34,499 nucleotides of DNA from a bacterium (GCA_030605785.1 JAUWHS010000099.1:1-34499), one strand, 5' to 3'. Positions 1 to 10,489 are shown, counted from the stretch's first letter. Made by a program: numbers and translations. Notes: generated by a model not told the origin, from the letters alone.

Positions 1-1548
1 AATCTAGAAGAAGATGTAATCGAGAATAGTAACGCTATTACAAATAACAATGAAGAAATAAACAATAACTCAAATGCATTAATAACTTGTTGCGACAACG
101 CGAATAATTCAATCACAGAAAATAGCAATGCTATCATCAACCTACAAGAAGATATTCATGAAAATAGTCAAGCCATAATTTTTATAAGAGAAGCGGGAAC
201 AAATCTCATTGTAGAAAATAGTAACGCTATTGTTAATAATAGCAGTTTCATCGCTCAAGCATTAATAACACAAAATAGTGACGCAATTGTGTCAATCGAT
301 AACTTCCCTCTCGTTGACGGTCCACTTACAACTGATATAACTTTAGAAAAAAGCGCGTTTATTCACCCAACGCAAAGAATTTTTGTCGCAGGAAATATAA
401 CAATTAACGGTCAAGGCGCAACTTTATACTTCGCGACAGATGAAAGACCAATCGGCGCGCAATTCGTAATTGATGAATATAAAACTTTAATTTTGAAAAA
501 TATCAGATTAGTAGGATTAACTCAAACAACATTTGAATTCAGAAAAGGTTCCAGATTAATAATTGGCGAAAATGTAAGTTGGGAATTCTTTAGAAATATA
601 ACTTTATCAAGCGGAAATATAATTTTACAAAACCAAGTTGCAGCTGATGGATCTGATATCGCGAATTCATTTTACATTCGTGGTATTGGAGGAAAAAAAC
701 GTCTAACATTAACTCCTGACTCTGATACAACATTACCAATGATTAACCTTGGACAAAATACTCTCGCATTACAAAATATTGAATTTACGGGTCTAGAATA
801 TATTTCTCAAACTATTTCTCCGGACGGACTATTAATTGGCGCGCTCGGACTTGCTGGTGATACAGCAGTTAATATTGAACAATCAAATAATATGGCATTC
901 GCGGTAATGGGACTTGGCAATACATTCAGAATGCTGGAAAACAATTTAAGACTTAATGGACAATTGGATTTTGTTGGTCTTGGTGAAGATGTTCTACATT
1001 TAGATTTCGTTTTACGCTCCCCTGTTGAATCAGTAAATGCGGGAACACAATTGGCTGACGGAAAAGTTCCGGTAATCAATTTTGGAACAGGATTTATTTA
1101 TCTTACATCACTGTCAGGTGTCGCAAGAATAATATTTGATGATTATCTAATAAGAATTAATAACGCGGCCAATGCATTTATAGCTACAAATAACGGTTAC
1201 CTTGGAGCAAATAAATTATACGTATCCGGAGATCCTATTTGGGACGCGTCAAATGATTCATCGAAAAACCGTTTTGCGGTCGAAGCTAATGAAATTGAAG
1301 CGGTTAAAGCGCTTGGTAAAGAGTATAAAAAACAACTTCCTGATTTTGGAATACCAATCATTGTAGATCCTTATCATCCACATAGAACTTCTGATTTCCG
1401 TTCAATAGATGATGATACAGATTTAATAAAAACGCTAAAAGAAAACATCCGACCAAAAACAGCGTTACAACTTGAAAGAGCAAAAGAGGAAAATATCGAT
1501 CCATCAACTCTTTACTTCGGTGAACCAAACTTTATAATTAAAAATTAA
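1..1548 (+). CDS. Large surface/secreted protein, 5'-partial: IxxNSxAI coiled-coil stalk followed by a predicted beta-solenoid domain
   Basis: Frame 1 is open from base 1 (NLEEDVIENSNAITNNNEEINNNSNALITCC...) into the listed ORF 289..1548, so the GTG at 289 is not the real start. There are six [IV]xxNSxA[IL] motifs in the first 97 codons. The C-terminal region (ITINGQGATLYF...AQFVIDEYKTLILKNI) resembles the N-terminal domain of the three downstream genes. Confidence 0.8.
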   Translation, partial: NLEEDVIENSNAITNNNEEINNNSNALITCCDNANNSITENSNAIINLQEDIHENSQAIIFIREAGTNLIVENSNAIVNNSSFIAQALITQNSDAIVSIDNFPLVDGPLTTDITLEKSAFIHPTQRIFVAGNITINGQGATLYFATDERPIGAQFVIDEYKTLILKNIRLVGLTQTTFEFRKGSRLIIGENVSWEFFRNITLSSGNIILQNQVAADGSDIANSFYIRGIGGKKRLTLTPDSDTTLPMINLGQNTLALQNIEFTGLEYISQTISPDGLLIGALGLAGDTAVNIEQSNNMAFAVMGLGNTFRMLENNLRLNGQLDFVGLGEDVLHLDFVLRSPVESVNAGTQLADGKVPVINFGTGFIYLTSLSGVARIIFDDYLIRINNAANAFIATNNGYLGANKLYVSGDPIWDASNDSSKNRFAVEANEIEAVKALGKEYKKQLPDFGIPIIVDPYHPHRTSDFRSIDDDTDLIKTLKENIRPKTALQLERAKEENIDPSTLYFGEPNFIIKN

Positions 1549-1571
1549 AAAGCGAGAAACAGAGAAATCTT

Positions 1572-3629
1572 ATGAAAATAAACAAAATTTTATTTGCAAT
1601 TTTAATCTACATTCCTTTTTCACAAAATTTATTTGCTACCTCTCTTGATGGCACAACAAATATTGTTTATAAAAACATTCATTATATTTTTGATAATAGT
1701 GATACAGCTACAGGTTTCGTACGATTAAGACAAGGATTTACATTACCTGAACATTCACAAGTAACTTTTAAAATAAATTCTCCGGTTTCCTCTGGAATTG
1801 ACCTACAAACAACAGGAACTTTAACATTAGATTCTGATCTTATTTTCGATCCAAACATATCTCTATCAAGTAGTGGTTTTATCAAAGGAAATAGTAATGC
1901 AATTATTTTAAATGACGATTTAACAATTCCAGCCAATAAAAATCTTGAAATAATTGGTGACACAATTATTAATGGAAATGGTCATAATTTAATTTTAGAT
2001 AACTGGGCACAAATTTTAGTTGACGGAGGTGTCACTCTAACTTTAAAAAATATGACTATTAAAAATGTCGTTAATTCAATTGCAAACCCACCAATAAAAT
2101 TAATTGATCAATACAGTAAACTTTCTTTAAACGAAGTGACCCTTGCCTTAAATAACGATTTTGCATTTCCAAACGGACAACTTTTTATCCACAATGATGT
2201 AATTTTTACAGGCTCATCTAAATTTAGTTATCGTTCAGTGTTGCCAAGTTATATAACTCCACATGCATGTTTATTTTTTGATATTGATACAACTTTTGAA
2301 TATTACCCAAGTTGCACAAGAGATGATTTAATTGTTTTATATAATGAAACTTCTAGCGTCTTTTTAAACGGTTGCACATTGCAAACAACTCATACAGGAA
2401 TTAAATTAACTAAAGGTAGGTTATTTTTTGATAATAAAATCACTTTAAGCAATGCTACCAATACAACAATGATAACTCCAAATCTTGAAGACAATAAGGA
2501 TTATGGAACTTATATTTATGGAGTTGATTGGAGGCCTGATGGTAAATATCTTGCTTTAGGTGGAGAGGGACCTTTTTCTGGTAACGAATTACAAATATAT
2601 TCCTTTGAAAATGATACTTTGACCTCTTATACATCTAAAAATTATGGTACTCGTATTTATAATCCTACTTGGAGTCCTAACGGAAAATATCTTGCTATAG
2701 GCGGACACATACCAACATCAGGTGATGAACTACAAATATATTCTTTCTATAATGAAGACCTTTCTGCATCCCCAATAACTTCAAAAAATTATGGCGATTA
2801 TCTCATTGCTTTAAAATGGAGGCCTGATGGTAAATATCTTGCATTAGGAGGAATTAACCCTACATCTGGAAATGAACTAGAAATATATTCTTTCAATAAC
2901 GAAGTTCTTTCATCATCCCCTGTTGCCCATTTTAATTTTGGAGCACAAGTTAGATCTTTAGATTGGCATCCAAATGGACAATATTTAGCAGTAGGTGGAT
3001 TAAATCCATTTTCTGGTAATGAGTTGCAAATATTTTCTTTTCAAAATGATGTACTAACTTCATACACTTCTAAAAATCTTGGTAGTTCTTCATCTACCGT
3101 CTTAGCATTAGAATGGAGTCCTGACGGACAATACTTGGCTCTTGGAGGTGTTTCATTTTATTCTGCAGATGAGTTTCAAATTTATTCTTTCATTAATGAT
3201 AATTTATCTACTTACACTGTCGATAGCAAAAACGATGGAACAATTCGAAATATAAAATGGCATCCTTCCGGAAACTATGTCGCATTTGGATCAAGCTCAG
3301 CAACTAACGATTTAGAAATATATTCTTTTAATAATGGATCACTTTCTTCATCCCCAATTTATGGAAAATCTTTTGGTGATGATCTTTATTCAATCGACTG
3401 GCATCCTAATCGTAAATACCTTGCATTAGGAGGAGAAAATCCAACTTCTGGCTATGAACTCGAGGTTTACAAAATAAATTATATGTTTGATGCAAGTTCA
3501 TCAACCCTATCAAACGCAATAAAATTTGGTGATTCTTCAAAAGGATCAGCTTATAATTTAAATACTTATGTACTCAGTGGAGCAACAATTGAAATTGATG
3601 GACTTATCTGGTGTGATGATGCAAGTTAA
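1572..3629 (+). CDS. Secreted beta-solenoid + WD40-like 7-blade propeller protein (paralog P1)
   Basis: 685 aa; signal peptide MKINKILFAILIYIPFSQNLFA; seven ~45-48 aa repeats with WxPxGxYLALGG...ELQIYSF; conserved C-terminal cap LSNAIKFG...GATIEIDGLIWCDDA. Confidence 0.85.
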   Translation: MKINKILFAILIYIPFSQNLFATSLDGTTNIVYKNIHYIFDNSDTATGFVRLRQGFTLPEHSQVTFKINSPVSSGIDLQTTGTLTLDSDLIFDPNISLSSSGFIKGNSNAIILNDDLTIPANKNLEIIGDTIINGNGHNLILDNWAQILVDGGVTLTLKNMTIKNVVNSIANPPIKLIDQYSKLSLNEVTLALNNDFAFPNGQLFIHNDVIFTGSSKFSYRSVLPSYITPHACLFFDIDTTFEYYPSCTRDDLIVLYNETSSVFLNGCTLQTTHTGIKLTKGRLFFDNKITLSNATNTTMITPNLEDNKDYGTYIYGVDWRPDGKYLALGGEGPFSGNELQIYSFENDTLTSYTSKNYGTRIYNPTWSPNGKYLAIGGHIPTSGDELQIYSFYNEDLSASPITSKNYGDYLIALKWRPDGKYLALGGINPTSGNELEIYSFNNEVLSSSPVAHFNFGAQVRSLDWHPNGQYLAVGGLNPFSGNELQIFSFQNDVLTSYTSKNLGSSSSTVLALEWSPDGQYLALGGVSFYSADEFQIYSFINDNLSTYTVDSKNDGTIRNIKWHPSGNYVAFGSSSATNDLEIYSFNNGSLSSSPIYGKSFGDDLYSIDWHPNRKYLALGGENPTSGYELEVYKINYMFDASSSTLSNAIKFGDSSKGSAYNLNTYVLSGATIEIDGLIWCDDAS

Positions 3630-3653
3630 ATCAATAATCCGGAGAAACGGAGA

Positions 3654-5705
3654 ATGAAAATAAACAAAATTTTATTTTTTATTTTGAATTTTTTAATCCT
3701 CTCCCCAAATTTATTCGCAATTTCTCTTGATGGTACAACAAACATTGTTTATAAAAAAACTCATTATACTTTTGATAATAGTGACACAGCTACAGGTTTC
3801 GTACAGCTTGATAGCGGTTTTTCCATTCCACAAAGCTCACAAGTAACCTTTAAAATTTATAATCCAATTCGTAACGGAATAGATTTACATACAACTGGAA
3901 CATTAACTCTAAATAATGATTTTATTTTAGATTCCACTGTATCTCTATCAAGTAGTGGTTTTATTAACGGAAACAACAACGCCATTATTTTAAATGACGA
4001 TTTAACAATTCCAACCAATAAAAACCTTGAAATAGTTAGCGATACAATTATAAACGGAAATGGTCATAATTTAATTTTAGATAACTGGGCACAAATTTTA
4101 GTTGATGGAGGTGTAACTCTAACTTTAAAAAATATGACAATAAAAAATGTCGTAAACTCAATCGCGAATCCTCCAATTAAATTAATTAATCAATACAGCA
4201 AACTTGCATTAGATGAAGTTACATTTGCGCTGAATGATGAATTTGCTTTTCCTAATGGCCAACTTTATATTCACAACGATGTAATTTTTACAGGATCATC
4301 TAAATTTAGTTATCGCTCTGTTTTGCCAAGTTATATTACTCCACACGCATGTATGTACTTTGATATTGGAACAACTTTTGAATATTATCCGGGTTGCAAC
4401 AAAAATGATTTGATTGTTTTATATGATAACTCATCCAGTATCTTTCTAAACGGATGTACTCTACAAACCACTCACACCGGAATCAAGCTTACAAAGGGAA
4501 GACTGTTTTTTGATAATAAAGTAACTCTTAGTTCTGCGGCCAATACCGTACTTGATAGTATTACATTAATAGATTCCAAATCTATTGGCGACTACGTTTA
4601 TTCTGCAGAATGGAGTCCTGATCAACATTACATCTCAATCGGAGCGCAAGGTGAAGCCTCCGGACAACTACAATTTTATTCTTTTTACAATGACACACTA
4701 ACAAGTGTTACATCCAAACAATACGACACTTTAGCTTCCATGCTACTAAGCACAGATTTCAGTCCTAATGAAAAATATTTAGCCATTGGTGGGCGAAGAT
4801 CAGCAGAGGGGAACAAAGAATTTCAAATTTATTCTTTTTATAACGACACCATTTCAACTTATACAATTCAATCCAAAGATGAAGGTTATTGGACTGCCTC
4901 AGCCAGATGGAGCCCTGATGGACATAATATCGCATTAGGAAATTACGGTGGAGCAGATATAGAATTATATGGTTTTGAGAATGAAGTTCTAACAACCTAT
5001 ACAAGCAGAAACTTTGGGGATAGAATTGAATCTTTGGATTGGAAACCGGATGAAAAATATATTGCATTTGGGGGGCGAATTCCAACAGATGCATCTGAAC
5101 TACATATTTATTTATTTAATAATAATACAATGTCTGATGCTCCCGCATTTAAAAAAGACTATGGAACAAATAGCTCATTCCTTTATGCCATAAAATGGAA
5201 TCCTGAAGGAAATTATTTTGCAATTGGAGGCTATCACCCCCACTCAGGCTTAGAATTACAAATATACTCTTTAATAAATGATACACTATCAACTTATACT
5301 TCAAAAAACTATGGTACACGAATTCAATCTGTCTCATGGAGTCCTGATGGACAACATTTAGCAATTGGGGGAAGAAATGCCGGAGATGAATTACAAATTT
5401 ATTCCTTTAAAGATAACCAACTATCGGCAACACCAGTTATATCACAAAGTTGGGGTTACGAAATTTATTCTGTTGCCTGGAGTCCTGATGGGAATTATTT
5501 AGCCGTTGGAGGAAATCAACCGGATTCAGGTAAAGAATTTGAAATTTATAAAGTAAATTATCGATTTGATACAACAACACCGACATTATCAAACGCGATT
5601 AGATTCGGAAATTCTTCAAAAGGATCATCTTATAACCTAAATACATATGTCCTTGGTGGAGCGACAATTGAAATTGACGGACTTGTCTGGTGTGATGATG
5701 CATAG
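3654..5705 (+). CDS. Secreted beta-solenoid + WD40-like propeller protein (paralog P2)
   Basis: 683 aa; same architecture as P1 and aligns end to end by eye; GGAGA-containing spacer upstream. Confidence 0.85.
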   Translation: MKINKILFFILNFLILSPNLFAISLDGTTNIVYKKTHYTFDNSDTATGFVQLDSGFSIPQSSQVTFKIYNPIRNGIDLHTTGTLTLNNDFILDSTVSLSSSGFINGNNNAIILNDDLTIPTNKNLEIVSDTIINGNGHNLILDNWAQILVDGGVTLTLKNMTIKNVVNSIANPPIKLINQYSKLALDEVTFALNDEFAFPNGQLYIHNDVIFTGSSKFSYRSVLPSYITPHACMYFDIGTTFEYYPGCNKNDLIVLYDNSSSIFLNGCTLQTTHTGIKLTKGRLFFDNKVTLSSAANTVLDSITLIDSKSIGDYVYSAEWSPDQHYISIGAQGEASGQLQFYSFYNDTLTSVTSKQYDTLASMLLSTDFSPNEKYLAIGGRRSAEGNKEFQIYSFYNDTISTYTIQSKDEGYWTASARWSPDGHNIALGNYGGADIELYGFENEVLTTYTSRNFGDRIESLDWKPDEKYIAFGGRIPTDASELHIYLFNNNTMSDAPAFKKDYGTNSSFLYAIKWNPEGNYFAIGGYHPHSGLELQIYSLINDTLSTYTSKNYGTRIQSVSWSPDGQHLAIGGRNAGDELQIYSFKDNQLSATPVISQSWGYEIYSVAWSPDGNYLAVGGNQPDSGKEFEIYKVNYRFDTTTPTLSNAIRFGNSSKGSSYNLNTYVLGGATIEIDGLVWCDDA

Positions 5706-5739
5706 TTAAATAAATAATCTGGAGAGATGGAGAAAACTT

Positions 5740-7815
5740 ATGAAAATAAACAAAATAATTTTCACATTAATTATTCTTTTAACAGTTTCACAAAATTTAT
5801 TTGCTACCTCTCTTGATGGCACAACGAATATTGTTTATAAAGAAAATCATTATATCTTTGAACAAAGCAAAGCAAATTCTGCCGAAGGTTTCGTTTGGCT
5901 TGAAGGAGGCTTTACAATACCAGAGCACACTCAATTAACATTAAAAATTAACCCTCCTGTCTCCTCTGGAATTGATTTACGAACAACAGGAACTTTAACA
6001 TTAGAATCAAATTTAAAACTCGAATCAAATTTATCTTTTTCAAGTAGTGGATTTATTAAAGGAAATAACAACGCAATTATTTTAAATGACGATTTAACAA
6101 TTCCTGCAGCCAAAAATCTCGAAATCATTGGTAATACAATTATCAATGGAAATGGTCATAATTTAATTTTAGATAACTGGGCACAAATTTTAGTTGATGG
6201 AGGTGTTACTCTAACGTTAAAAAACATAACAATTAAAAATGTTGTTAATTCAATTGCAAACCCACCAATTAAATTAATTGATCAATACAGTCAATTAGCA
6301 TTAGACGAAGTAACTTTTGTTTTAAATGATGATTTTGCGTTTCCAAACGGCCAACTTTTTATTCACAATGACGTAATTTTTACAGGTTCATCCAAATTTA
6401 GTTATCGTTCAGTTTTGCCAAGTTATATAACTCCACACGCATGTTTATATTTTGATATTGATACAACTTTTGAATATTACCCAAGCTCAACAAGAGATGA
6501 TTTGATTGTTTTATATGATGAAACTTCTAGCGTCTTTTTAAACGGTTGCACATTGCAAACAACTCATACAGGAATTAAATTAACTAAAGGTAGATTATTT
6601 TTTGATAATAAAGTGACTCTTAGTTCTGCTGCCAAGACCGTGCTTGATAGTCTTACATTAATAGATTCTAAAGTAATTGGGGAATATGTTAACTCAATAG
6701 GATGGAGTCCTGATCAACATTATATTTCGATAGGCACACAAAATCCAAATTCCGGACAAGAATTACAATTATATTCTTTTTATAACGACACATTGACTAG
6801 TTATACATCTAAACAATATGGTGTTGATTCGCCTTATCTTTTAACTACAAAATTTAGCCCTAATGGGAAATATCTATCTATTGGAGGTCACACAAATAAT
6901 CCAAGAGGAGATGAAGAATTTCAAATTTATTCTTTTTACAATGACACACTTTCTACCAATACAATACAATCTAAAGATACAGCCTGGTGGGTAGCGGAAA
7001 CTGCATGGAGTCCAGACGGAGAAAATATTTCTATAGCAAATTACTGGCCTATAACAGCACACAATGATATAGAATTATATGGATTTCAAAACGAAATATT
7101 AACAACATATACCAATAGAAATTTCGGGGACAGGGTAAATACTGTAGATTGGAGACCTAACGAAAAACATATTGCATTTGGAAGCAAAAACCCAACAGAT
7201 ACAGCTGAATTACATATTTATTCATTTATTAATAATACTATGTCAGATGCTCCTGTATTTAAAAAAGATTATGGTCCAGGTGGTTCCTTTATTCATGGAG
7301 CAGAATGGAATCCTGATGGACAATATCTTGCACTCGGAGGATATAGACCACACTCCGGCCTAGAATTACAAATATATTCTTTAATAAACGATACATTATC
7401 AACTTATACTTCAAAAAACTATGGTACACGAATTCAATCTGTCTCATGGAGTCCTGATGGACAACATCTGGCAATTGGGGGGAGAAATGCTGGAGATGAA
7501 TTACAAATTTATTCATTTAAAGATAATCAGTTATCTGCGTCACCAATTATATCTCAAAGTTGGGGTTATGAAATTTATTCTATTTCTTGGAGCCCCGATG
7601 GAAATTATTTAGCTGTTGGAGGACAAACACCCGATTCAGGTAAAGAATTTGAAATTTATAAAGTAAATTATCGATTTGATACAACAACACCAACATTATC
7701 AAACGCGATTAGATTCGGAAATTCTTCAAAAGGATCATCTTATAACCTAAATACATATGTCCTTGGCGGAGCAACAATTGAAATTGACGGACTCGTTTGG
7801 TCTGATGACGCATAG
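5740..7815 (+). CDS. Secreted beta-solenoid + WD40-like propeller protein (paralog P3)
   Basis: 691 aa; same architecture; N-terminal domain is P1-like and the propeller plus cap is P2-like; GGAGA RBS upstream. Confidence 0.85.
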   Translation: MKINKIIFTLIILLTVSQNLFATSLDGTTNIVYKENHYIFEQSKANSAEGFVWLEGGFTIPEHTQLTLKINPPVSSGIDLRTTGTLTLESNLKLESNLSFSSSGFIKGNNNAIILNDDLTIPAAKNLEIIGNTIINGNGHNLILDNWAQILVDGGVTLTLKNITIKNVVNSIANPPIKLIDQYSQLALDEVTFVLNDDFAFPNGQLFIHNDVIFTGSSKFSYRSVLPSYITPHACLYFDIDTTFEYYPSSTRDDLIVLYDETSSVFLNGCTLQTTHTGIKLTKGRLFFDNKVTLSSAAKTVLDSLTLIDSKVIGEYVNSIGWSPDQHYISIGTQNPNSGQELQLYSFYNDTLTSYTSKQYGVDSPYLLTTKFSPNGKYLSIGGHTNNPRGDEEFQIYSFYNDTLSTNTIQSKDTAWWVAETAWSPDGENISIANYWPITAHNDIELYGFQNEILTTYTNRNFGDRVNTVDWRPNEKHIAFGSKNPTDTAELHIYSFINNTMSDAPVFKKDYGPGGSFIHGAEWNPDGQYLALGGYRPHSGLELQIYSLINDTLSTYTSKNYGTRIQSVSWSPDGQHLAIGGRNAGDELQIYSFKDNQLSASPIISQSWGYEIYSISWSPDGNYLAVGGQTPDSGKEFEIYKVNYRFDTTTPTLSNAIRFGNSSKGSSYNLNTYVLGGATIEIDGLVWSDDA

Positions 7816-9528
7816 TTAAGAAAAAAGTTTTTGATAATTTTTTAGAAAATTCAAGGCGATTGTTTGTGCCGGACGTGAAGATCCGGCATTCTCCACCAAA
7901 ACAATTAAAGTTAATGGATCCTGATCTTTATATTTGAAATATGAAGCAAACCAGGCGTGTTCAAGCTGACTTTTTTTTACAATCTCTTTTTGTAAACTTG
8001 TTGTTTGCGCAGTACCTGTTTTCGCATGAATTTTAAAATCTACAAGCCTTCGGAGCAACTTCGCTGTTCCTTTTTTTACAGCCTTTCTCATTGATTCACG
8101 CAAAATATCTAACGTAGAATTGGCAATTAAAAGTTCTTCTATTTCAATATCTTCATCCTGTAAAATTCTTGGCTTTATTAAATAACCTGTACAAATACTA
8201 GAAATCATTCGAGCTATCTGCAAAGGCGTTACAAGTAAATAACCTTGCCCCAAACTTACAGCCAAAGTGTCTCCCTTCCACCAAGGCTCACCTTTTGTCG
8301 CAACCTTCCATTCATAAGTTGGAACCAATCCTGATTTCTCATTTAATAAAAAATTTGTTTTCCTTCCTAAACCAAAACAATATGCATAATAAGCAAACTG
8401 ATTAATTTTTAGTTTTTGCGCAATTTCATAACAAGGAATATTACAAGAATAAGCAAGTGATGTTTTTAAATCTAAATCTCCATGCCCCCATCTTCTTTGA
8501 CACATATACTTTCTTCCACCAAAAAAGGTAAAACCTTTGCAATGAAATTCTGTATCTTCATCAATCTCACCTTCTTCTAAACCGGCCGCAAAAGTTATTA
8601 ACTTAAAAACAGACGCCGGAGGATAAAGAGCGTTTGTTGTTCTATCTAAAAGAGGACTATTATACATAAACTTTTCGTTCCAATCATCGTTAGAAATAGG
8701 ATCTAAAAATAAATTTGGATCAAAATTAGGATAGGATAGCATCACTTTTATTGCGCCATACTGCGGATCCATAACAATTAACACACCTGACTGATCATTC
8801 TCAAATAAATTTTCCGCGATTTTTTGCAATCTAAAATCCAAGGTTAATTTAATATCACAACCCTGCTTCGCGTTTCTAAATTCTTTTTGTTCTAATTTTT
8901 TTCCGGTAGAATTGGTTACATATTTTATATAACCGGACTCCCCTTTTAATTTATCCTGAAACATTTTTTCAAGACCTGTTCGCCCCTGTGTTATAAATTT
9001 TTCAGATCTTGACAGGTAACCTAATAAATGACTTGCTATTTTTCCATGCGGATAAAAACGCTTAAAACGATTTACAATAACCAAATTATATGAATCATTG
9101 CACTGTTCACTAATACAACAAAGTTCATTAAAGGTTATATTTTCTTTTAATAAAATTCGACGAGAATATTTTTCTGAAAATCTGATTTCATTAAATTTTG
9201 AATTTAAAGCAATATCATCTTGTAAAATTTCATCTATTTTTTGTAAAATGTTTTTTTGTTTTTCATCTAAACTTTTAAAACCACCCCCCTGCCAATATAA
9301 ATCATAGACAGGTTTATTTGACGCTAACAAAACATTATTACAATCTAAAAAGTTACCTCGAACGGAAGGTAAAGTTTCACGACGTAAAAAATTTTTTTCT
9401 CCTAAATTTGAAAATTTATCTTTCTGATCTATCTGGAGGTAAAAAAGACGTAAAATTACAACAAAAACAAAAAGAATGAAACCGTATAAGATCTGTTTTA
9501 TTTTTAGATTACGCTGTTGTTGAATCAA
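7816..9528 (-). CDS. mrdA: Penicillin-binding protein 2 (class B transpeptidase)
   Basis: N-terminal TM helix followed by RLFYLQI and RGNFLD; SxxK (ASVFK), SxN (YSCN) and KTG (AKTGTA) motifs. The start is placed at TTG 9528 because AAGGA lies just upstream; the ORF track starts at TTG 9549. Confidence 0.88.
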   Translation of the reverse strand: MIQQQRNLKIKQILYGFILFVFVVILRLFYLQIDQKDKFSNLGEKNFLRRETLPSVRGNFLDCNNVLLASNKPVYDLYWQGGGFKSLDEKQKNILQKIDEILQDDIALNSKFNEIRFSEKYSRRILLKENITFNELCCISEQCNDSYNLVIVNRFKRFYPHGKIASHLLGYLSRSEKFITQGRTGLEKMFQDKLKGESGYIKYVTNSTGKKLEQKEFRNAKQGCDIKLTLDFRLQKIAENLFENDQSGVLIVMDPQYGAIKVMLSYPNFDPNLFLDPISNDDWNEKFMYNSPLLDRTTNALYPPASVFKLITFAAGLEEGEIDEDTEFHCKGFTFFGGRKYMCQRRWGHGDLDLKTSLAYSCNIPCYEIAQKLKINQFAYYAYCFGLGRKTNFLLNEKSGLVPTYEWKVATKGEPWWKGDTLAVSLGQGYLLVTPLQIARMISSICTGYLIKPRILQDEDIEIEELLIANSTLDILRESMRKAVKKGTAKLLRRLVDFKIHAKTGTAQTTSLQKEIVKKSQLEHAWFASYFKYKDQDPLTLIVLVENAGSSRPAQTIALNFLKNYQKLFS

Positions 9529-9529
9529 G

Positions 9530-10489
9530 TTATTTTTCCTTGCTACCAATAATTAAATTATCCATAATTAAATTATCCATTTTATTTAATGGATGTTTTT
9601 CATCACACATTTTAGCAAGTTCAGCTGAGGTTACTCTTGTATAAATTTCGGTCGTTCCAAGATTTTTGTGACCTAAAAGTTCTTGAATAACTCTTAAATC
9701 AACACCCTGATTTAAAAGATGTGTAGCAAAAGAATGACGAACTTTATGAGGAGTTAAGTTTTTATCAATTTTTAAAAACTTTCTAAACATTTCAAAAATT
9801 CGTTGAACCGAACGAGGAGTAAGTTGTGATCCTGAATTGTTCAAAAAAAGATATTCATTTTGCTGCTTTTTCAATAATAAAAAACGTTCTTTTTCAATAT
9901 ATTTTTTTAAAACTTTTTTTGCTTTTTCACCAAAAAGAACAATCCTCTCCTTTGAGCCTTTTCCAAGAACCTTGACCGCTTTATTTGTAAAATCAATATC
10001 ATTTAATTTTATACTTACCAATTCAGCGCAACGCGCTCCGGTCGCATAAATTAATTCAAAAATCGCTTTATCGCGAAACGGATATTTTGTTGGCAAGTCA
10101 TCATTTTTAACAGAATCCAATAAATAAAAAATTTCATCTACCGTCAGAACTGTTGGTAACTTTCGATCAAGCTTTGGCGATTTAAAGCTTACATTAATTT
10201 TTACACCATTTGATCTGAGAAAAACCTGAAATGAGCGAAAGCAAGAAAGCTTTCTTGCTAGAGATGCTTTTGATATTTTTTTATAAAACATAAAAACAAT
10301 ATAACGATGAAGAATTTTTTCTATAGAACCTTTTAAATCTTTTTCCTTGGCTGCTATTCTTTGCCAAAAAGCAATAAATTGTTCTAAGTCAACTTTGTAA
10401 GCCCGCAAAGTATTTGGCGCGCTATTTTTTTCTACTTCTAAAAAAATTAAAAACTCACTAATTTTTTGTTTTAAAAAATCTAAATTCAC
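9530..10489 (-). CDS. xerC: Tyrosine recombinase XerC/XerD
   Basis: N-terminal SAM-like domain (SAPNTLRAYKVDL); catalytic R (YATGARCAEL), K (GKGSKER), HxxR (PHKVRHSFATH), LGH and Y (TTEIYT). The choice of xerC over xerD is not certain. Confidence 0.85.
   Translation of the reverse strand: MNLDFLKQKISEFLIFLEVEKNSAPNTLRAYKVDLEQFIAFWQRIAAKEKDLKGSIEKILHRYIVFMFYKKISKASLARKLSCFRSFQVFLRSNGVKINVSFKSPKLDRKLPTVLTVDEIFYLLDSVKNDDLPTKYPFRDKAIFELIYATGARCAELVSIKLNDIDFTNKAVKVLGKGSKERIVLFGEKAKKVLKKYIEKERFLLLKKQQNEYLFLNNSGSQLTPRSVQRIFEMFRKFLKIDKNLTPHKVRHSFATHLLNQGVDLRVIQELLGHKNLGTTEIYTRVTSAELAKMCDEKHPLNKMDNLIMDNLIIGSKEK

Follow-up and report, generated by a model that had tools for sequence, protein, structure and literature searches.

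The contig JAUWHS010000099.1 of the assembly GCA_030605785.1, which represents an uncultured bacterium of the Babeliales (TM6), begins with four co-oriented genes on the + strand (positions 1–7815), namely ORF1 and the tandem paralogues P1, P2, and P3. The window analyzed here, 34,499 nucleotides (nt) in length, is this entire contig (C19), and the assembly to which it belongs comprises 1.18 Mb in 136 contigs and is 90.5% complete. ORF1 (1–1548, +) is an open frame of 515 amino acids (aa) that is truncated at its 5′ end at the first base of the contig, and its product appears to be an exported, fiber-like protein with a stalk, a beta-helix, and a helical tail. P1 (1572–3629, +) encodes 685 aa, which comprise a leader (residues 1–23), a beta-helix (24–300), an inserted WD40 propeller (301–640), and closing rungs (641–685). 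P2 (3654–5705, +; 683 aa) and P3 (5740–7815, +; 691 aa) have the same architecture as P1, and P3 hardly differs from P2 in its last blades and its tail. Together, the four genes make up a small tandem array within a modular superfamily of beta-helix proteins, in which the P-type members found here carry a WD40 propeller within the helix.

The genes are separated by GAGA-rich spacers of only 23, 24, and 34 nt, as had been noted in the original prediction. The spacer between ORF1 and P1 (1549–1571, +) contains a Shine-Dalgarno-like purine run, GAGAAA-CAGAGAAA; the spacers between P1 and P2 (3630–3653, +) and between P2 and P3 (5706–5739, +) end in ...CCGGAGAAACGGAGA and ...CTGGAGAGATGGAGAAAACTT, respectively. 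In all three spacers, a GAGA/GGAGA run is located 5–12 nt upstream of the ATG, and these purine-rich runs are read as ribosome-binding (Shine-Dalgarno) sites. The last two spacers have AATAATC-GGAGA-GGAGA in common, which is consistent with duplication of the whole unit along with its ribosome-binding site. A pattern scan of the window found no + strand terminator-like sites between the four genes, which are probably co-transcribed. Promoter-like sites in the same type of scan were at the level of chance (48 vs. 50.7 expected) and are uninformative.

The link between ORF1 and P1–P3 is a shared beta-helix core. In hhalign comparisons, this core spans residues 110–211 of ORF1 (328–633, +) when aligned to the P1–P3 profile and residues 108–208 of P1 (1893–2195, +) when aligned to the ORF1 profile. 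A shallow comparison, in which 10 helices from the same genome were set against ORF1 and its paralogue, scored 94.5% (E = 8e-8, 93 columns). A deep comparison (60 vs. 143 sequences) scored 98.6% (E = 9.1e-16, 96 columns; P1 108–208 vs. ORF1 110–211), compared with 4.6% for a reversed template and at most 0.9% for the nine column-shuffled templates that reported a result (the tenth gave no line). The HMM–HMM similarity that the original prediction had presupposed is thus present, and at exactly the alignment that had been proposed; it is limited to about 100 residues and does not extend over the whole solenoid. In addition, the P-helix HMM matches the ORF1 paralogue P0077 (E = 4e-7) as well as the relatives P0078 and P0087. 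Both HMMs match 115 of 227 stored proteins, in which P-helix positions of about 85–185 coincide with ORF1-family positions of about 97–205; these proteins were collected by the same searches, and the E-values refer to that small set. The ORF1-family profile also matches P-like frames of about 700 aa in other genomes, at positions of about 113–205, and a 727-aa frame on contig C41 of the same assembly (E = 2.1e-7). By profile comparison, ORF1 and P1–P3 have a homologous beta-helix core, which makes up about four rungs and about one-third of each helix.

For P1–P3, the N-termini as read by eye (MKINK, a hydrophobic core, and LFA before T/I-S) resemble signal peptides, and the AlphaFold2 model of P1 has a helix at residues 2–19 that corresponds to the leader. 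This model, which was built from an alignment of 62 sequences (pLDDT 93.6, pTM 0.89), has only short strands at residues 24–300 (pLDDT >90), followed by a seven-bladed propeller, after which strands resume at 650–681. The propeller of P1 corresponds to positions 2472–3491 (+; residues 301–640) and is the fast-diverging part of the protein. PF00400 (WD40) matches P1, P2, and P3 with 66.6, 58, and 53.2 bits, respectively (Pfam cut-off 27), and ANAPC4_WD40 matches them with 51.6–74.1 bits (cut-off 22.9). All Pfam matches in P1–P3 belong to WD40-type propeller families and lie past residue ~310, with none in residues 1–300. In structure comparisons with VIA-align, the P1 propeller has a Z score of 37.5 to 2ymu_B (rmsd 2.0, 286 aligned residues) and of 37.1 to a WD40 domain from Thermomonospora curvata (5yzv), and in Foldseek a TMt of about 0.8 to Ciao1, WDR61, and WDR5; the nearest solved structures are eukaryotic WD40 proteins. 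Residues ~301–640 of P1–P3 are true WD40 seven-bladed propellers by both sequence and fold. NCBIfam searches gave only sub-threshold rows for TolB, lactonase, and similar families.

The position of this propeller is revealed by comparison with P0024, a relative that lacks one. Residues 72–292 of P1 align to residues 305–524 of P0024 (53% identity, E = 1e-70), and residues 634–683 of P1 align to residues 521–570 (52%, E = 2e-12). Because P0024 has the two blocks side by side, whereas in P1 they are separated by 341 residues, the propeller has been inserted into the beta-helix, and is not appended to it as had originally been supposed. The helix itself has few conserved charges: among 35 nearly invariant columns in the 62-sequence alignment of P proteins, D258 is the sole charged residue. 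The other nearly invariant columns are G, T, N, P, S, W, and hydrophobic residues, and the three fully invariant columns are glycines. An ESM Atlas search with residues 24–300 of P1 reached a best score of 0.83, which is below the level of a lead, and its named rows (Pectate_lyase_5, Fil_haemagg, and Beta_helix) are only hints. In some relatives of about 380–400 aa (P0030, P0009, and P0055), the helix leads into just one WD40-like blade (WSPDGKY...), and in P0030 closing rungs come after it. These single-blade proteins may have arisen by deletion from members with a propeller, or their genes may have been called too short.

The two parts of P1–P3 have diverged to different degrees. Over the full length, P1 and P2 share 62% and P2 and P3 share 77% identity. 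Helix identity among the three is 80–84%. The propeller of P1 shares 45–46% identity with those of P2 and P3, and the propellers of P2 and P3 share 74%, in agreement with the variable propellers that had been predicted. The dN/dS values are 0.05–0.48 across all partitions, with 0.12–0.20 for the helix and 0.18–0.40 for the whole propeller; for the P1 propeller compared with those of P2 and P3 they are 0.34–0.40. For several pairs, dS is near saturation. The propeller evolves faster than the helix, and the values below 1 in every partition indicate that all three copies have been maintained under purifying selection. The dS values form a mosaic. In the helix, dS is lowest for P1 and P3 (0.48 vs. 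0.96–0.99 for the other pairs), and in the last blades and the tail it is lowest for P2 and P3 (0.21–0.40, compared with 0.99 in the helix of the same pair). P2 and P3 are 100% identical in the 30-residue windows 541–570 and 631–660. These patterns point to segment exchange between copies and suggest that gene conversion may have occurred within the P1–P3 array.

The first 98 residues of ORF1 (1–294, +) consist of NS(N)AI heptad repeats, which are predicted to form a coiled coil of three parallel strands, with Asn at every other d position. In ORF1 and five relatives, 71 of the 96 spacings between NS-x-A-I motifs are multiples of 7 (50 are of 14 residues), and 12 are of 18 residues. In the 14-residue consensus, N-S-N-A-I-V-N-L-x-E-D-I-x-E, the successive a, d, a, and d positions are occupied by I, L, I, and N. 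Three-copy models of residues 1–120 scored 0.85, 0.84, and 0.85, compared with 0.12 for the best control; in calibration, 20 of the 30 solved pairs and one of the 23 single chains attained the mark used for such complex scores, and this calibration, which was made with two copies and with alignments of its own, holds only roughly for the ORF1 trimer. At least 56% of the contacts agree among the runs, the partner pLDDT is at least 80, and the interface runs in register through residues 2–91 with a 3–4 spacing, passing through N9, N23, N41, N55, and N73. In the stalks of trimeric autotransporters, Asn residues at d with Thr or Ser next in sequence (N(d)T) are described as coordinating an anion in the core of the trimer (PMC13580157). 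The heptad statistics and the trimer model thus agree with the coiled-coil stalk originally proposed, and ORF1 is predicted to carry a parallel trimeric stalk with Asn-at-d layers. No other frame with NS-x-A-I repeats is present in the assembly.

Residues 99–437 of ORF1 (295–1311, +) are nearly all strands in the AlphaFold2 model (41-sequence alignment), with a pLDDT mostly at or above 90. By fold-level match, this body is modeled as a right-handed parallel beta-helix. The first six VIA-align ranks have Z scores of 12–14 (rmsd 4.9–6.5, 261–310 aligned residues), a range in which, for repeat folds, values below about 13 may reflect a common arrangement only. They comprise the PL6 lyase 6qps (Z 14.0, rmsd 5.5, 310 aligned residues), the pneumococcal adhesin PfbA (13.4), the PL6 lyase 7o7a (13.4), the CBA120 tailspikes TSP3 (13.3) and TSP2 (13.1), and the Pet passenger (13.0). 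The autotransporter passengers Hap (12.3), UpaB (11.6), and pertactin (11.3) are found in lower rows. All 50 of the VIA-align rows listed are beta-helix or beta-solenoid proteins by title, and none stands out. A search of BFVD with the same model gave generic beta-helix rows, with one match at E ≤ 1e-3 (TM 0.19). ORF1 has no Pfam family at E ≤ 1 and no NCBIfam family.

The tail of ORF1 (1312–1545, +; residues 438–515) is modeled with low confidence and has helices at 472–481 and 488–496 as well as the motif IRPKTALQLERAKEENIDP. A tail motif, IRPKTALQLERAKEENIDPSTL (window 1429–1515, residues ~477–505), recurs in an ORF of 639 aa on another contig of the assembly (C87:13909–15825, –; 61% identity over 28 residues, E = 3e-4). 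The product of this ORF is beta-rich and looks unrelated, and it has the motif near its N-terminus, directly after the leader; its stretch DPFRSIDEDEL resembles DFRSIDDDTDL of ORF1. The motif may be a short common docking or sorting motif.

The original description of ORF1 also needs correction in that its 5′ end is incomplete at the start of the contig, such that the window copy keeps only the last ~95 residues of the stalk, and the fiber architecture is suggested by full-length relatives. These are 474–1029 aa long and have an N-terminus composed of a leader and an N-domain of about 75 aa (e.g., P0076–P0078). In the same-genus genome G001, the counterpart of ORF1 has 1029 aa with about 550 residues of repeats and is located between two P-like genes, ahead of the same penicillin-binding protein (PBP) and recombinase genes that follow the array here. 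Stalk length among ORF1 relatives varies from zero, in the paralogue on contig C41, to about 550 residues.

Beyond the window, a second array in the same assembly (C41:19017–30726, –; locus L032) contains seven co-oriented genes of the superfamily. The first six products have 425, 727, 376, 713, 421, and 726 aa, and the seventh is the stalk-less ORF1 paralogue (481 aa, 53% identical). This array is kept gene for gene in G001 (L031). One further family gene, of 443 aa, is found on contig C57. In the three C41 proteins of 713–727 aa, the helix is C-terminal and follows a different, propeller-like N-terminal domain, which in one of them matches Tectonin PF19193 (30.2 bits, cut-off 30) and in another has a faint match to Kelch. 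Tectonins are lectin-like. Three of these proteins are also matched by the N-domain of the ORF1 family, with E-values between 4e-8 and 3e-6 in a set of 12 sequences. Other members consist of the helix alone (376–443 aa), of a stalk and a P-type helix in one chain (P0024 and P0051), of five or six whole P-type helices in tandem (P0203, P0219, and P0224; 2072–2495 aa), or of a partial P-type helix followed by an ORF1 body (~1200 aa). Two relatives of about 2900 aa (P0092 and P0104) contain several helices and an ORF1-type body. The interchangeable heads that had been proposed for the four genes therefore gain support from outside the window, with the helix occurring alone, with a Tectonin/Kelch-like propeller, with a stalk, and in five to six tandem copies.

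The superfamily is widespread in related genomes and has a patchy distribution. A profile search of genomes, of the kind that the original prediction had suggested, detected the helix in 65 of the 201 genomes sampled across the phylum (E ≤ 1e-20). By family-level group, it is found in 23/23 genomes of f12, 8/9 of f7, 4/4 of f19, and 18/66 of f20, and in none of the 28, 14, and 13 genomes of f3, f13, and f6, respectively. Among 61 related genomes, 25 have the helix (E ≤ 1e-10), and copy number within one order ranges from 0 to 29 matches per genome, with 10 in the genome studied here. Such numbers do not support the discrete four-gene system that had been envisaged. The ORF1-family profile matches 24 of the 61 relatives, in the same family-level groups as the helix, although its weak matches are cross-hits to the helix. 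Database searches found 74 relatives of the P1 helix and, by word search, four close relatives of ORF1; the profile of the ORF1 body retrieved 280 cluster representatives, of which 132 were at E ≤ 1e-30. By hand count, a helix gene is listed no more than 10 kb away for 17 of the 31 ORF1-body matches at E ≤ 1e-30, and these 17 come from 11 genomes of five families; this count leaves another 115 helix matches outside the listing, and the genomes, being related, do not provide independent cases. G001 has retained the order P-like, ORF1-like, P-like.

In public records, the relatives are named "WD40 repeat" or "hypothetical" protein and in some cases "Tol biopolymer transport system component" or "PD40 domain." The records themselves are named Babeliales, TM6, or Dependentiae, or are unclassified ("bacterium"), apart from a group of metagenome-assembled genome (MAG) records (L038–L041, L044, L049, L051, L056, L057, L062, and L064) that are labeled "uncultured Pseudomonadota," "Bacteroidota bacterium," or "uncultured Porphyromonadaceae" and carry full-length members. 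These labels may be wrong. No cultured isolate was found among the 32 loci, which all come from MAGs or one single-amplified genome (SAG), in a pattern-limited scan that is not proof of absence. In these profile searches, the modular superfamily was encountered only in genomes from the Babeliales/TM6 lineage (Dependentiae), which is widely distributed and consists of obligate protist parasites.

The expectation that the family is undescribed agrees with the searches made. For the non-WD40 parts, no Pfam family was found; seven long relatives had no match, and five more had only chance-level rows. By sequence, the helix profile has no PDB match at E ≤ 10, and the ORF1-family profile has four chance rows (E ~0.9). 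The genome papers on TM6/Babeliales, in their accessible text, treat mainly ankyrin and other eukaryote-like repeats and refer in a general way to signal-peptide-bearing proteins with WD40 or other propellers (PMC4776705, PMC6561590, PMC4378268). In the literature on Dependentiae, Babeliales, and TM6 that was searched for WD40, beta-helix, and adhesins, the text available does not describe the beta-helix scaffold, the stalk, or the propeller-in-helix architecture; Additional file 9 of PMC4378268 (expanded families) and tables S5 and S6 of PMC4776705 may list relatives of the family.

For anchoring and export, searches for known components were mostly negative, as had been anticipated for the barrel. 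The autotransporter barrel PF03797 is absent from the four proteins and from the 90.5%-complete assembly, with controls matched. The YadA anchor PF03895 is absent from ORF1, the C-terminus of which is complete, and from the assembly, with an Escherichia coli control matched. YadA_head and YadA_stalk repeats were found neither in ORF1 (E ≤ 1) nor in relatives with 200–550 aa of repeats (E ≤ 10). The Pfam model Chlam_PMP (PF02415) has no match in the four proteins at E ≤ 1, a result at the level of the family model and not of individual GGA[ILV]/FxxN motifs. Families of Beta_helix, Pectate_lyase, lyase, or hydrolase in Pfam have no match at E ≤ 1 in ORF1 or in the non-WD40 parts of P1–P3. PF03865 (ShlB-type TpsB) has no match in the genome, but the control genomes were silent too. 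Three secretin matches above the Pfam cut-off are present in the genome, and a type II secretion system with two copies of gspD is reported for TM6 genomes in the available part of PMC4776705. Finally, PHROGs has no match for ORF1, its paralogue, or a C41 protein, and P1 matches only a WD40-type phrog without an assigned function.

Several known systems resemble parts of this family. Trimeric autotransporter adhesins (YadA, UspA1, Saa, and their relatives) have, as is predicted for ORF1, an extended stalk that is a parallel trimeric coiled coil, in which Ser/Thr comes directly after Asn at d; they are likewise fibrous proteins with a globular binding part and an exported repetitive stalk of variable length. 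However, they have a C-terminal YadA anchor barrel, which ORF1 and the assembly lack. ORF1 also has no YadA Pfam repeats, its distal part is a single-chain right-handed beta-helix by prediction, and its polarity appears to be reversed, since a conserved N-domain precedes the stalk in full-length relatives. Chlamydial Pmp proteins, to which the original prediction had likened the family, are similar in being multigene, leader-bearing beta-helix proteins of an obligate intracellular lineage that form tandem arrays with divergent copies, and type Va passengers (pertactin, Hap, and Pet) align structurally with the ORF1 helix with no sequence relationship detected. The family differs from both in having no barrel, no Chlam_PMP match, and heads in the form of beta-propellers, which either interrupt the helix or are joined to it. 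The likeness to Pmp proteins is thus one of functional analogy only, as the defining Pmp features (barrel and Chlam_PMP) are missing. Phage tailspikes and fibers (P22, Sf6, and CBA120) have the same order of attachment domain, trimeric coiled coil or neck, and right-handed beta-helix, but ORF1 has no PHROG match and the array is located beside housekeeping genes. Compared with other WD40 propellers, those of P1–P3 differ in being exported behind a leader and inserted into a beta-helix, at a loop close to its C-terminus, an arrangement not found described in the available text of the literature searched. What is unusual here is the propeller-in-helix architecture and the barrel-less Asn-at-d stalk; multigene families of exported beta-helix binding proteins are known.

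Taken together, these findings indicate that ORF1 and P1–P3 are modular, tandemly amplified, exported binding proteins that probably act at the cell surface or as secreted proteins in host contact, a role that we infer. We give this reading as a whole somewhat better than an even chance, and its structural and evolutionary part, taken alone, is highly probable. The leaders look like Sec signal peptides, such that the proteins would cross the inner membrane by Sec and would then be delivered to the cell surface or released into the medium, with one of the three secretins as a possible exit. By homology to full-length relatives, ORF1 would be a fiber that consists of a leader, an N-domain of about 75 residues, a long trimeric coiled coil, a beta-helix, and a short helical tail. 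P1–P3 would be three diverged duplicates in which the helix serves as the conserved scaffold and the propeller as the fast-diverging part, and they may act in a ligand-binding (adhesin-like) manner toward the protist host, with the propellers as binding faces. An adhesin- or fiber-like function, rather than an enzyme-like one, is suggested by the few conserved charged residues, the fast-diverging propellers, the Tectonin-like alternative head, and the adhesin-type trimeric stalk. The family provides concrete candidates for host-contact proteins of Babeliales and includes three domains without a Pfam model (the helix core, the ORF1 body, and the N-domain). Moreover, a trimeric Asn-at-d stalk without a barrel anchor is a testable structural prediction.

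A number of observations weigh against this reading. For the shared core, the pairwise BLASTP comparison of ORF1 and P1 over the region originally proposed was not significant (E = 3.7, 25% identity over 145 columns with 31% gaps), which is why profile comparison was needed. The P-solenoid HMM did not match ORF1 itself, the ORF1-family HMM did not match P1–P3 themselves, and the remainder of the two helices has no detectable similarity. For the fold of the P1 helix, searches with the whole model by Foldseek and VIA-align returned WD40 propellers only; because the propeller filled both hit lists, the helix is assigned to its fold class from the pattern of its strands and its homology to the ORF1 core. 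For ORF1, a Foldseek search with the model gave no match at E ≤ 1e-3 (best E = 0.024), and part of its VIA-align Z scores fall in the range where a common arrangement may suffice. The monomer model of ORF1 is disordered at residues 1–98 (pLDDT ~33), a behavior that the available text of PMC13580157 reports for predictions of such polar-core coiled coils, and the success of the trimer model may reflect likeness to solved autotransporter stalks. No sign of gene-wide positive or diversifying selection was found among P1–P3, given that dN/dS is below 1 in every partition. The leaders of P1–P3 were assigned by eye only, and with no anchor identified, a periplasmic or a fully secreted location is equally compatible with the data. 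Finally, the leader-bearing WD40 and propeller proteins of Babela have been read as acting inside the host cell (PMC4378268, in its available text).

This last point leads to the main rival explanation, in which P1–P3, and perhaps ORF1, are secreted effectors inside the protist host, with the WD40 propeller capturing host proteins and the beta-helix serving only as a stable carrier. P1–P3 do have leaders and no anchor, and the nearest structures of their propeller are eukaryotic WD40 proteins. As far as their accessible text goes, PMC4378268 and PMC4776705 read leader-bearing WD40, propeller, and ankyrin proteins as host-directed, and PMC6561590 reports signal peptides in 44% of the coding sequences of Chromulinavorax. 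However, a trimeric Asn-at-d stalk combined with a beta-helix is typical of extracellular fibers and adhesins, and the same helix also carries Tectonin-like propellers. We regard intracellular effectors as rather unlikely; if the proteins were of this kind, the family would still be a large unmodeled part of these small genomes.

Another possibility is that ORF1 and P1–P3 assemble physically, with the helix core as the docking interface, such that one stalk shows interchangeable propeller heads. The tight spacing and common orientation of the genes, the presence of ORF1-type genes within 10 kb of helix genes in 17 of 31 strong matches (the hand count given above), and the gene order kept in G001 are in line with such an assembly. 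However, tandem duplication alone yields adjacency of homologous genes, the ORF1 paralogue on C41 has no stalk, and the single-chain fusions (a stalk with a P helix in P0024, and a P helix with an ORF1 body in the ~1200-aa proteins) argue for module shuffling instead of docking between chains. Since module fusion elsewhere and tandem duplication explain the neighborhood without a physical system, one that unites the four proteins is possible but unsupported, and we consider the assembly improbable. Equally speculative, and about as improbable, is an extension in which the family would be a barrel-less, reversed-polarity counterpart of trimeric autotransporters: the N-domain would anchor at the envelope, the variable stalk would project the beta-helix, and the helix core would dock the stalk-less P1–P3, such that one fiber would show changeable WD40 and Tectonin-like propellers. 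If this were true, the changeable propeller set on one fiber would decide which protist is infected.

An enzymatic role is less probable still. The beta-helices could be carbohydrate-active enzymes (lyases, hydrolases, or proteins like tailspike depolymerases) acting on glycans of host or prey, with carbohydrate-binding propellers, and PL6 alginate lyases, polygalacturonases, and phage depolymerases do rank among the top structural matches to the ORF1 helix. However, non-enzymatic adhesins are equally numerous among these neighbors, with Z scores tied within 1–2, Pfam detects no lyase, hydrolase, or Beta_helix family at E ≤ 1, and D258 is alone as a charged residue in the nearly invariant P columns. 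Least probable of all are periplasmic or envelope-structural proteins with TolB-like propellers and no host-contact role, for which the Sec-type leaders as the only export signal, the "Tol biopolymer transport system component" and "PD40 domain" names of relatives in some sources, and the adjoining PBP gene could be cited, but the TolB model reaches only 20.8–26.2 bits (cut-off 343), and the 0–29 matches per genome in one order, the tandem amplification, and the divergent propellers fit an accessory, fast-evolving family.

Downstream of the array and convergent with it are genes for a PBP transpeptidase (7816–9549, –) and an XerC/D-type recombinase (9530–10489, –), which overlap by 20 nt, followed by an endonuclease III-like gene and a class II tRNA synthetase gene. 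This neighborhood is a housekeeping context and not a phage context. Because the PBP and recombinase genes follow the array both here and in G001, the right-hand border of the array is fixed. Within the array, contigs of four public DNA runs were compared with the window. One 1,696-nt contig of run X1 matches positions 2390–4085 without difference and spans the P1–P2 junction; X1 may be the source sample, and the match is thus not independent support. Among the pieces listed from the four runs, no contig bridges the ORF1–P1 or the P2–P3 junction. Alternative joints of low depth between paralogous positions were also observed, for example from 7482 back to 2712 (X1) and from 5074 to 7498 (X4, with 22 other letters between). 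The window positions touched by such joints are 2712, 5074, 5491, and 6916–7587, and the sides of the joints are shorter than 36 letters. These joints may represent copy-number or recombinant variants of the array, or they may come from other strains or organisms.

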